Below are positions 4,496 to 25,774 of a DNA stretch of 64,000 nucleotides, piece after piece (the first letter of the stretch is position 1; each line of letters starts with the position of its first letter). The stretch lies in assembly GCA_001775995.1 (NCBI GenBank), contig MEZH01000001.1, positions 32,001 through 96,000 on the forward strand. Reading direction: 5' to 3'. The notes under the pieces were generated by a model. It saw only the letters and a program-made list of their open reading frames with translations. It ran no database searches and was not told the origin of the DNA. This DNA comes from Candidatus Bathyarchaeota archaeon RBG_16_48_13 (lineage in GTDB: Archaea; Thermoproteota; Bathyarchaeia; RBG-16-48-13). The translations under genes were made by a program, and so were the position numbers.

Positions 4496-5722
4496 TTATT
4501 TTTCCGGCGCTATTTCGTTGAAAGTCAGGAACCTCATATTCACTGGCCGTTTTGTGACATCGGAAATCCTATCCGCAACCAGAGTCTTAACACCTTTTTC
4601 GCCTGCTATGTCTACTAACCTTTGGGTTATAACCCCATCAAATACTACTGTGTCGGCACCTTCTATTTGTTGTAGTTTTTCCGCAAGTTCGTTCACCGGG
4701 AGTCTCAAAATAGTTGCCATGCTGCTGCTCAGGATAACAGCTTCTAGGGTGTTTCTAAGTTCGTTGACAACTTCTAGGATTTGCGATTGGACAGGGACTT
4801 TGGGGATCTCTTTTAGCTCGATGGATTCTTTGCGCTCTTTCGGTGCTGGTATTTCCCGAAACTCTCTTGGTTCTCTAGGCTCTCTGTGGTGGTGTTTCAT
4901 GCTCTCCTTGATTTGATCGATTGGGATCTTTTCTTTCAGCGCTTTCAATATTTCCTTTGGTGTAAGTTCCTCTACTTCTTTGCCTTGTGGCGCTCTTGCC
5001 ACGTAGTCAATATTTGCCACTTGAAGAAGTTCTTTTAGGATCAAGTCGCCACCTCTGTCCCCGTCCAAGAAGGCTGTGACCTCTTTCTCTCTGGATAGCT
5101 TACCGATGGTCTCAGGCATCTTGGCGCCCTCAACAGCTACGGTGTTCTTGATACCGCATCTAAGGAGATTTATGATGTCTGCTCTACCTTCGACTATTAT
5201 TATGGACGGGGAGGAAATCATTTCGGGTCCCGCAGGCAATTCGTCAGGACCATAACTCACCACGTCTTGAATTTTCATGGTGTCAGAGACTTCTTTTATG
5301 ACTTCGTCGATGCTAGGAATCGACTCAATGGTCCATTTTTGGAGTATTTGCTTAGCCCGATCTATGATGACTTTTCTCTTTTCTTCCCTAGCATCGTCTA
5401 TCTTCTCGATGCTCAACTTCGCGGCGCATGGACCTATCCTATCCACGCTTTCTATTGCAGCAACGATAATTGAAGTAGAAACTCGATCCAAGCTTGATGT
5501 TATTGTGATGGTACCATAAGTCCTGTCTTTCTTGGACTCTAAATCTATTTCTATTCTTCCGACCCTACCAGTTTTTTGGAGTTCTCTCAGGTCAAGCTCT
5601 GAACCGAATAGCCCTTCAGTTTGGCCGAATATTGCGCCTATTACGTCGGGTTTTTCGACAACCCCATCAACTTCAAATTTGCCTTTAATAACATATTTAG
5701 TTGTAAATTGTGATGCAACCAT
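4496..5722 (-). CDS. dnaG: Archaeal DnaG-type primase / exosome-associated DnaG
   Basis: KPDVIGAIFGQTEGL, IIVEGRAD, FLDGDRGG (TOPRIM). Confidence 0.95.
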   Translation of the reverse strand: MVASQFTTKYVIKGKFEVDGVVEKPDVIGAIFGQTEGLFGSELDLRELQKTGRVGRIEIDLESKKDRTYGTITITSSLDRVSTSIIVAAIESVDRIGPCAAKLSIEKIDDAREEKRKVIIDRAKQILQKWTIESIPSIDEVIKEVSDTMKIQDVVSYGPDELPAGPEMISSPSIIIVEGRADIINLLRCGIKNTVAVEGAKMPETIGKLSREKEVTAFLDGDRGGDLILKELLQVANIDYVARAPQGKEVEELTPKEILKALKEKIPIDQIKESMKHHHREPREPREFREIPAPKERKESIELKEIPKVPVQSQILEVVNELRNTLEAVILSSSMATILRLPVNELAEKLQQIEGADTVVFDGVITQRLVDIAGEKGVKTLVADRISDVTKRPVNMRFLTFNEIAPEK

Positions 5723-5835: not shown

Positions 5836-6258
5836 TCATAGCTTAAGTGTACTTTTTAATCTTTCCATATATCTGGATAGACTTTCGATATCCTTTATTT
5901 CATGTCGCACTAGGCTCTTGATCCTTCTCCAGAATACCAGATTCGCCTTGACCCTATTTCCCTCCAATGAACCACGGAGGCGCCCCGCCAACTCGCGCCC
6001 ATAACGATCAAAGTCGGTCAATATTATGACGGAATTCTGCGTATCACTTATCTCCTCAACAAGATTAGTAAGAGCTTTGCCACTATTATGCAAACATATG
6101 ATTTTGCCTGTGACGCCTAATTCACGAAGGGCGACAACGTCTTTTCTTCCTTCAACTATGATAGCCGTCTCTTTGGATTCTTCAGCAAGTTTCTCCACGA
6201 GCTTTATTAACGTTTCTGCCCTTTGCTCAATGTTCAATTGCACACCTGTTCGGATCAC
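5836..6258 (-). CDS. Small TOPRIM-domain protein
   Basis: IIVEGRKD...ILTDFDRYG. Confidence 0.85.
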   Translation of the reverse strand: MIRTGVQLNIEQRAETLIKLVEKLAEESKETAIIVEGRKDVVALRELGVTGKIICLHNSGKALTNLVEEISDTQNSVIILTDFDRYGRELAGRLRGSLEGNRVKANLVFWRRIKSLVRHEIKDIESLSRYMERLKSTLKL

Positions 6259-17065: not shown

Positions 17066-17185
17066 ACATGAGAGAACAGATTCAGCAAACCTTTTAAATT
17101 GTTCGCATCCATCACACAACTTACTCTGGACCAGAAAGCGTAGAAACGTTTTCTGGCAAATAGTGTGTGCCGAGGGGCCTTATAG

Positions 17186-17319
17186 GCCGGGGTTGGTCTC
17201 CGACTACCGAAAGCTCAGCCTGGTTAGATGAGTGACCTCAAACCAAAGCGCCAGACCTCTCTATGAGAGGAGCGTTACTCATAATCTGGAGATCGTGGGT
17301 TCGAAACCCACCCTCGGCT
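17186..17319 (+). tRNA. Elongator tRNA-Met(CAT), introns at 8/9 (17194-17211), 22/23 (17228-17246) and 30/31 (17255-17276)
   Basis: Three BHB/relaxed-BHB motifs (CGGG/ACCG, GGTT/AACC, CGCC/AGCG); the spliced product is a 75-nt cloverleaf with CCAGA/TCTGG stem. Confidence 0.85.
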
Positions 17320-24300: not shown

Positions 24301-24445
24301 CGGGCCCGACGGGAATTGAACCCGTGACCCCCGGATTTCTTCTTTTCTCATTAAAAGTTTCACCGAAGCGCCATTTTCAGGCGACCTCTCCGATGCTCTT
24401 CCTAGCTGAGCCTCCCGGCCGAAACAAAGATCGGCTTACGGGCCC
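24301..24445 (-). tRNA. tRNA-Lys(TTT), introns at 9/10 (24412-24436), 30/31 (24359-24389) and 37/38 (24337-24351)
   Basis: BHB central helices CCCG/CGGG, CATC/GGTG, CTTT/GAAG; spliced length 74 nt. Confidence 0.9.
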
Positions 24446-24514
24446 ATGGACCCGCTAAGAAGCTTTCTCAAACGGAATCTTCCTAATAACTTTTCCTCTT
24501 CCATTTGTTATAGT

Positions 24515-24527
24515 AAAAATTTAAATA
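24515..24527 (+). promoter_or_regulatory. Probable BRE/TATA for tRNA-Asp
   Basis: AAAAA-TTTAAATA ending about 26 nt upstream of G1. Confidence 0.55.
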
Positions 24528-24553
24528 AAAACTGCTCATTCAATGTGATGGAA

Positions 24554-24683
24554 GCCCTGGTAGTATAGCCCGGCCTAGTATGTGCGGCTGAACCCGAAAA
24601 AAGGGTAGCCGAATCACCCGCACGACCCGGGTTCAAATCCCGGCCAAAGGAAAGAAAAGAATCTTTCCTACCGAAGGGCGCCA
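24554..24683 (+). tRNA. tRNA-Asp(GTC), introns at 34/35 (24591-24613) and 68/69 (24647-24675), CCA encoded
   Basis: BHBs CGGC/GCCG and CGGC/ACCG; spliced acceptor GCCCTGG/CCAGGGC, G73. Confidence 0.9.
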
Positions 24684-24769
24684 CACTTTGATAGTGCCGG
24701 GGCTTCGCCATTCCATCAATTGACCGGTTGTCATTTTTATAAGCTCCAAGAGCGATAGATCATTTCCAG

Positions 24770-25774
24770 ATGACGAAAATGGCAACTTTGGGAATAGCGA
24801 TAACTCCCAGTAAGAGTCCATTGGAATATGTTAAGATTGCCCAGTTGTGCGAAACGATGGGTGTAGAATATATCTGGGTGGCTGACGAAATACCTTCTTC
24901 TCCGTATCGAGACCCATTTGTAACTATGACAATCTTAGCCCTGAACACAAAGAAAGTGAAACTTGGCACAGACATCACAAACCCTTACACACGACATCTA
25001 GCACATATTGCCGCGGCGATGTTATCTATAGATGAGATTTCTAATGGAAGAGCCGTAATTGGTCTTGGGCCAGGTGGCTCCCTGACTCTTCAGCCTTTGG
25101 GAATAAGGTTATGGGACAAACCTTTACTAACTGTCAGAGAAGCAGTCAATCTTCTTGGACGACTCGTAAACGGGGAAATCGTAAACCACGATAGCTCCCC
25201 CATGAAAATGGTCAGAGTCCAAATGTTCCGCAAAAGTAAGATTCCTATCTATTTAGCTGCCCGAGGAGAAGGAATGCTGTCTCTTGCGGGCGAGATAGCC
25301 GATGGAGTCCTTCCCACATCTCCAATAAAACTATTGAGGAATCAGGTGAATTTAATAAAGGAAAGTGCTAGGAAAGCAGGTCGCGACATCTCGAAGATTG
25401 ACATAGCAAACACTATACCCCTTTCAGTTTCCATGAATGAAAACCAAGCGCGAGAAGCAATAAAGCCCGAGATAACCTACATGATCACCAATCTTCCAAA
25501 ATCATGGCTTGTACAACTAGACATGAGCGAAAACGAGCAAGAGATTGTTAGAAAAGCCCTCTTCAAGGGAGGAATAATAGAAGCACAAAAGAAGATTAAA
25601 GACAAAATGGTAGACGCTCTCGGAATAGTTGGTACTCCTAAAACTTGCGCACAAAAATTCAGGGAAATGATGAATGCTGGGGCGACCCAAGTAGTCTTGT
25701 CATCACCCTTTGGCCCGGATCTGAAGGAGGCTTTCAATCTCATAAAGGACGACGTTATACCGAGACTTAAATAG
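24770..25774 (+). CDS. LLM-class (Mer-like, probably F420-dependent) oxidoreductase
   Basis: WVADE, LGTDITNPYTRH, SNGRAVIGLG, IYLAA.G, AGEIADG. Confidence 0.85.
   Translation: MTKMATLGIAITPSKSPLEYVKIAQLCETMGVEYIWVADEIPSSPYRDPFVTMTILALNTKKVKLGTDITNPYTRHLAHIAAAMLSIDEISNGRAVIGLGPGGSLTLQPLGIRLWDKPLLTVREAVNLLGRLVNGEIVNHDSSPMKMVRVQMFRKSKIPIYLAARGEGMLSLAGEIADGVLPTSPIKLLRNQVNLIKESARKAGRDISKIDIANTIPLSVSMNENQAREAIKPEITYMITNLPKSWLVQLDMSENEQEIVRKALFKGGIIEAQKKIKDKMVDALGIVGTPKTCAQKFREMMNAGATQVVLSSPFGPDLKEAFNLIKDDVIPRLK

Follow-up and report, generated by a model that had tools for sequence, protein, structure and literature searches.

A conserved trailer element beside the 68/69 intron of archaeal tRNA-Asp genes and its probable part in splicing

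The tRNA-Asp gene, its introns and its flanks

The window, that is, the whole stretch of 64,000 nucleotides that was analysed, carries a tRNA-Asp gene that is spread over three exons, the last of which supplies just the final eight nucleotides of the tRNA. [quoted passage not shown]

24554-24683 (+): tRNA-Asp(GUC) gene with three exons and two BHB introns, 34/35 and 68/69 (sequence)
24554-24590 (+): exon 1, nt 1-34, last base G34 (sequence, Rfam, ARAGORN)
24554-24560 (+): 5' acceptor strand GCCCTGG, within exon 1
24591-24613 (+): intron 1 (34/35), 23 nt (sequence)
24614-24646 (+): exon 2, nt 35-68, with CCA (nt 66-68) at its 3' end (sequence, ARAGORN)
24627-24643 (+): T arm, within exon 2
24639-40 with 24677-78 (+): intron 2 BHB, outer helix H1, 2 bp
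24641-44 with 24670-73 (+): intron 2 BHB, central helix H2, 3 bp and a C.A mismatch (24644/24670)
24645-47 and 24674-76 (+): intron 2 BHB, bulges CA/A and AA/G
24647-24675 (+): intron 2 (68/69), 29 nt (sequence)
24648-54 with 24663-69 (+): intron 2 BHB, inner helix H3, 7 bp
24676-24683 (+): exon 3, GGGCGCCA, the final 8 nt, made up of GGGC (nt 69-72), G73 and CCA (sequence, ARAGORN)

The cut sites of both introns fall after the second base of each 3-nt bulge, and cuts at these positions give a correct mature tRNA. ARAGORN reads the spliced exons as a tRNA-Asp(gtc) of 78 nt, which has G73, CCA and an acceptor stem of 7 perfect pairs, and this product differs by one base (position 37) from intron-less tRNA-Asp of Bathyarchaeia. 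Removal of intron 1 restores the anticodon GTC, by which a tRNA-Phe identity for the gene is ruled out. In its unspliced form, the gene scores only 29.2 bits with the Rfam tRNA model, with a mis-aligned 3' end, and ARAGORN run on the window did not detect it. It is the sole tRNA-Asp gene of the 849-kb, 75%-complete assembly.

The BHB of intron 1 reads GTG, CGGC, bulge TG/A and ACCC on one side and GGGT, one extra A, GCCG, bulge AA/T and CAC on the other, so that all four pairs of its central helix are formed, plus the extra A. [quoted passage not shown] A preliminary description of this DNA had placed the intron inside the 3' acceptor strand, and the BHB, with cuts at the expected bulge positions, bears this out. 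What has to be added is that the motif takes up the T-stem 3' strand besides acceptor bases: it occupies nt 61-71, comprising the T-stem 3' strand (nt 61-65), C66-A68 and G69-G71, and therefore deprives two 5' strands, that of the T stem and that of the acceptor stem, of their partners. Introns 1 and 2 have a common BHB core, CGGC and bulge on one side and GCCGAA followed by the cut on the other (24585-24613 and 24641-24675), and this resemblance suggests that one may be derived from the other or that both may come from a common mobile intron.

The flanks of the gene hold the following features.

24508-24515 (+): second AT-rich box, giving a leader of about 15 nt if used (read from sequence)
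24520-24527 (+): TATA-like box TTTAAATA, candidate tRNA-Asp promoter (read from sequence)
24546-24553 (+): leader TGATGGAA, of which GAA (24551-24553) pairs with TTC of the trailer
24684-24696 (+): spacer CACTTTGATAGTG between CCA and the trailer element
24697-24706 (+): A-type trailer element CCGGGGCTTC, stand-in 3' strand for leader GAA plus nt 1-7
24712-24718 (+): second trailer segment TCCATCA, after a 7-nt bulge containing GCCA (precursor fold)
24744-24748 (+): first T5 run 3' of the gene, candidate stop of pre-tRNA transcription (read from sequence, inferred)

The predicted start of the tRNA-Asp transcript is based on the spacing rule for archaeal promoters, by which the TATA-like box at 24520-24527 would place the start near 24550, with about 4 nt of leader. 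Between the CCA and the trailer element, this locus has no T run of four or more. The genes downstream of tRNA-Asp are luciferase-like monooxygenase (LLM) genes, and the T5 run at 24744-24748 overlaps the TATA-like box of the LLM gene that has its ATG at 24770. Judged from its letters, CATTTTTATAAG (24744-24752) may be both the T-run stop of the tRNA and the LLM TATA box, in which case the LLM gene would be nearly leaderless.

The trailer element begins 13 bases downstream of the CCA and pairs with GAAGCCCTGG (24551-24560) over 10 contiguous bp, the sole wobble being U5.G. Leader and acceptor strand, taken as a 15-nt probe, form a duplex of -23.1 kcal/mol with the 45-nt trailer (RNAduplex), an energy matched by 2 of 20,000 random 45-nt windows of the same genome; the energy of a 10-mer probe was reached by none of 20,000 such windows. 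The helix of leader and acceptor strand with the trailer is present in both the minimum free energy (MFE) and the centroid fold of the whole precursor (z = -4.4). In both folds, leader and trailer are joined by a further 7 bp, 24546-24552 with 24712-24718, in which the leader bases TGATGGA find an alternative pairing with TCCATCA and which matters only with a leader of about 8 nt or more. The leader:trailer helix is continuous, and a BHB that might let the splicing endonuclease trim the ends was sought in it and not found, the 7-nt bulge lacking BHB geometry. A CACT/AGTG hairpin that had been proposed between gene and trailer can be set aside, as it has 4 bp, does not rise above chance and is replaced in the MFE fold.

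The 68/69 intron and its trailers in other archaea

The 68/69 intron is known from about 45 tRNA-Asp genes of Bathyarchaeia, Hadarchaeia and Nitrososphaeria. Within the order it occurs in 8 of 23 genomes, the source genome included, and one more genome was found among 378 others in the class, which makes nine Bathyarchaeia genomes in this survey. A pattern scan of one genome per prokaryotic species gave 31 archaeal loci, in Bathyarchaeia, many Hadarchaeia, Nitrososphaerales and Terraquivivens; with T loop, T-stem 3' strand and 3' end kept constant in the pattern, the scan samples Asp-like genes only, and three bacterial matches (L061, L076, L078) and one odd Thaumarchaeota match (L058) were left out. 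In Hadarchaeia, about 19 of the 39 genomes with a tRNA-Asp match carry the intron.

Every full-length trailer of these genes contains one of two elements. The A-type trailer is the complement of the 5' acceptor strand and runs 2-5 bp into the leader; it is carried by the source genome, G009, G004, the Hadarchaeum group, L051 and L073. The T-type trailer, which many relatives use and which the preliminary description did not have, is the reverse complement of nt 46-60, which span the T loop and the T-stem 5' strand; 13-14 of its 15 positions pair, and it begins at or just 3' of A76. Its carriers are most Bathyarchaeia, many Hadarchaeales and Terraquivivens. In the A-type spacer of the source gene, TTTGA resembles the part of the relatives' T-type trailers that is complementary to the T loop.

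A few of these loci have further peculiarities. In L049, L072 and L082, a run of 5-6 T lies between the CCA and the element and, going by its sequence, could end archaeal transcription before the element is reached. An extra intron in the T arm (53/54 region) is present in the tRNA-Asp of L046 (G004) and of L069/L121, and the use of an A-type trailer by G004 agrees with a need for its T-arm 5' strand in that further BHB. Bathyarchaeota BA2 (L067) has an isolated 3' part of a tRNA-Asp gene, which starts at about nt 47 and carries a 68/69 intron and a T-type trailer; no 5' half was found within 300 nt, and a complete tRNA-Asp without the 68/69 intron lies about 0.5 kb from the fragment (minus strand near 5494 and plus strand near 5930-6055). 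The fragment could be half of a split gene, an att remnant or a pseudogene.

The association of element and intron is close. Whereas all intron carriers have an element, 30 of 31 intron-less tRNA-Asp controls lack both the A-type and the T-type. When the trailer is paired with either leader plus acceptor strand or the T-arm 5' half, the mean of the best duplex energies is -20.4 kcal/mol for 33 genes with the intron and -8.1 kcal/mol for 18 intron-less Thermoproteota controls; within Hadarchaeia, the means are -21.7 kcal/mol with the intron (n=17) and -10.9 without it (n=13). The single exception among the controls is L116, an intron-less Hadarchaeia tRNA-Asp with an A-type-like element, CAGGGGC, placed after a T5 run. 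Five other intron-less Hadarchaeia genes (L100-L104) have (C/T)AGGGT(T/A)C, and this sequence and that of L116 may be relics of intron loss. Among the intron-less tRNA-Asp genes of Hadarchaeia, 8 of 13 end in GCCT, and the full CCA is encoded in every intron-bearing gene.

The presence of the trailer in relatives without the LLM genes had been named as a check on its origin, together with its presence in relatives without the intron. A search for related loci with the downstream LLM protein found no relatives, and no LLM homologue lies near tRNA-Asp in any relative that carries the 68/69 intron. As the trailer is present in all of these relatives, its distribution follows that of the intron, independently of the inserted genes.

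The pairing of the element has also been kept while its sequence changed. In T-type genes, the pair at nt 47 goes from A:T in Bathyarchaeia to C:G in Hadarchaeia, and that at nt 49 from C:G to T:A or T.G. Facing U49, the T-type trailer often carries an A in place of the G65 of the real T-stem strand and is thus not a plain copy of the latter. In A-type genes, leader and trailer are combined as gaa/TTC (source genome), gga/TCC (G009), ggt/ACT, cgg/CCG (Hadarchaeum) and tgg/CCA. Across leader positions -1 to -4, 34 of 48 cells are paired, compared with 23.8 after permutation of trailers among loci, and 34 was reached by 5 of 20,000 permutations; since the compared genomes are kin, rank tests overstate significance and such p-values are indicative, and the pattern repeats in three classes. 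Compensatory changes across lineages, as in a conserved structured RNA, are thus present, with relatedness lying outside the model. The 10-bp pairing of trailer with leader and nt 1-7, as originally proposed from the one gene, hence recurs, in A-type form or as its T-type counterpart, with every 68/69 intron found and in A-type genes co-varies with the leader.

The splicing endonuclease EndA (PF01974) was not found in the 75%-complete source assembly; it is present in 22 of 22 relatives from the order. Two or three matches of about 180-200 aa occur in 15 of them, as expected for an (alpha-beta)2 enzyme. One of two PF01974 paralogues lies 1-4 kb from tRNA-Asp in 6 of the 7 order relatives with the 68/69 intron (G012:C1, G015:C27, G017:C12, G002:C38, G004:C11 and G010:C4).

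Precursor folding, the proposed role of the trailer and its rivals

How might a trailer assist the removal of an intron from the acceptor stem? Cleavage of the 68/69 intron would require the BHB over nt 61-71, with which the normal cloverleaf, with its T and acceptor stems, would compete. The trailer would serve as a substitute partner for one of the freed strands, binding nt 1-7 together with the leader in A-type genes and nt 46-60 in T-type genes; this pairing is predicted to remove the competitor and make the cleavable BHB fold cheaper. A second benefit may come between cleavage and ligation, when the 8-nt last exon would by itself be held by 2-4 bp; in both types the trailer would add 10-15 bp and keep the exon that bears it attached to the rest of the tRNA. 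Trimming of the ends would come after splicing, an order that both proposed roles predict.

Constrained folding in silico is consistent with the first of these roles. In the source gene with its trailer, the BHB is favoured over the full cloverleaf by 8.0 kcal/mol; without the trailer it is disfavoured by 3.6 kcal/mol, and the difference is -0.9 kcal/mol with shuffled trailers. Over 27 loci, the corresponding means are -10.3 with, +0.7 without and -2.3 kcal/mol with shuffled trailers, and the effect has the same direction in 27 of 27. Relative to the whole ensemble, the computed cost of the BHB in the source gene drops from 9.9 to 4.6 kcal/mol with the trailer. The stronger idea that the trailer makes the BHB the most stable fold is rejected: with nearest-neighbour energies, no locus has the strict BHB as its global minimum, and this fold stays 2.4-8.3 kcal/mol above the ensemble. 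With its trailer, the source gene has a BHB that is 3.7 kcal/mol less favourable than a fold with the T stem only, and in A-type genes an intact T stem combined with the stand-in acceptor helix is still the favoured fold under constrained folding. The argument from conformers is therefore clearer for T-type trailers.

The presence of a trailer in every gene found with a 68/69 intron, in three classes, indicates that it is probably a built-in splicing aid. We accordingly consider it probable, with room for doubt, that CCGGGGCTTC acts in cis as a conserved segment of the tRNA-Asp precursor and aids 68/69 splicing, a role that we infer together with the order of the steps. A broader proposition, which we favour by a smaller degree, is that archaeal tRNA introns near the ends of the gene depend on a class of cis-acting flank elements that has not been described previously. 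The 68/69 tRNA-Asp trailer would belong to this class in either of two ways, by replacing the acceptor 3' strand or by sequestering the T-arm 5' strand and T loop.

An alternative is that the leader:trailer helix acts as a processing or quality-control gate, which, by masking the 5' end and the leader, would hold back RNase P, tRNase Z, exonuclease trimming or aminoacylation as long as the intron is present, or would guard the precursor from decay. The helix does cover the RNase P site and the whole short leader, inhibition of RNase P by leader:trailer pairing is generally known, and the computed gain of the BHB over the T-stem fold is small in A-type genes. A gate nevertheless leaves the T-type trailers unexplained, which bind nt 46-60 beside the BHB and leave the 5' end free, and it gives no reason for the restriction of the element to the end-proximal intron, so that we regard it as unlikely. 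Another idea sees in the element a neutral remnant: an integrating element (att-like), or else the event by which the intron was inserted, would have duplicated the tRNA 3' end, and the copy would since have been decaying. An att-like duplication had been raised in the preliminary description, and the likeness of CCGGGGC...GCCA to CCAGGGCGCCA, a Hadesarchaea gene (L079) with a complete second end CCGGGGCGCCA and the lone fragment in Bathyarchaeota BA2 speak for such an origin. Yet the two copies stand 13 nt apart with no element or integrase between them, the downstream LLM genes are absent from all relatives that carry the element, and the core is kept in three classes amid spacers that cannot be aligned. 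The extension pairs and co-varies with the leader where a copy of the 3' end would read GCCA, and T-type trailers are inverted complements of nt 46-60 and not direct repeats. A relic is very improbable on these grounds, and the att-like duplication found no support.

It could further be supposed that the genuine 3' acceptor strand lies in the trailer copy, with 24644-24696 as a 53-nt insertion, as ARAGORN accepts the joined form as a 75-nt tRNA-Asp. This reading is hard to credit at all, as it entails a U5.G68 wobble, puts U73 where every relative retains G73 and leaves no CCA next to it, the 53 nt are not bracketed by a BHB, and T-type relatives have no such alternative strand, while the product of 68/69 splicing is one base (position 37) away from intron-less Bathyarchaeia tRNA-Asp. 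As for coincidence, complementarity arises more easily in a sequence that is G+C-rich and semi-palindromic (CCGGGG), but the 2 in 20,000 random windows and the recurrence in all full-length intron-bearing loci make its probability practically nil.

Known systems, consequences and mirror-image leader copies

A role for the trailer in splicing can be compared with two known systems. Non-canonical tRNA introns of Thermoproteales and other archaea have been listed at positions from 3/4 to 59/60 (PMC4090602, PMC4033280). The tRNA-Asp gene is like them in having a BHB that is built partly from exon sequence, several introns in one gene and an expected broad-specificity (alpha-beta)2 endonuclease; it differs in that neither a 68/69 intron nor a need for leader or trailer in cis-spliced genes is given in these papers. 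The other system is that of split, trans-spliced tRNAs (Nanoarchaeum equitans, Caldivirga; Randau 2005) and permuted tRNAs (Soma 2007), reviewed in PMC4090602 and PMC3978253, in which flanks that are later discarded pair with each other, hold the exon pieces together and present a BHB to the splicing endonuclease. Unlike these, tRNA-Asp is one co-linear gene with one transcript, its trailer pairs with exon or leader sequence and not with another flank, and since the helix lacks both a BHB and bulges of BHB geometry, the endonuclease would not cut the flank off; in A-type genes, the flank moreover lies away from the splice motif. By analogy, the trailer may work like the flanks of split tRNAs without belonging to that family. 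In the literature found, whose coverage is incomplete, flank pairing is described for split and permuted tRNAs only (PMC4090602, PMC3978253), and no published 68/69 intron or helper flank on a cis-spliced tRNA gene was encountered.

If the trailer does aid splicing, flanks of tRNA precursors that are thought of as disposable can be required for splicing, and maturation would proceed by splicing and then trimming. It would also explain how an intron can persist in the acceptor stem, where the BHB must unfold the tRNA, in at least three archaeal classes. For gene finding, the stand-in strand is misleading, as seen from the gene missed by ARAGORN and from the wrong discriminator base that results when the trailer copy is taken as the 3' end. 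Conversely, complementarity of trailer or leader can be used as a search handle for hidden end-proximal introns. As the same orthologous gene comes with either of two interchangeable trailer designs, it lends itself to natural comparisons in work on RNA folding pathways.

The trailer had been likened at the outset to a mirror image of leader copies on tRNAs with introns near the 5' end, and the copies of tRNA-Lys and tRNA-Met in the window are real. The tRNA-Lys(TTT) gene, which has a 9/10 intron, and its leader lie on the minus strand, at 24447-24456 and 24301-24455. In a mirror image of the tRNA-Asp trailer, this leader, TAGCGGGTCC, pairs over 10 bp with a target (GGGCCCGCTA) that runs from the 3' acceptor strand through G73 into the trailer. 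The elongator tRNA-Met gene with an 8/9 intron lies on the plus strand at about 17186-17318, with a leader copy at 17169-17175. The copy, GCCGAGG, is 10 nt 5' of G1; its complementarity to the 3' strand CCTCGGC is perfect and exceeds that of the real 5' strand GCCGGGG.
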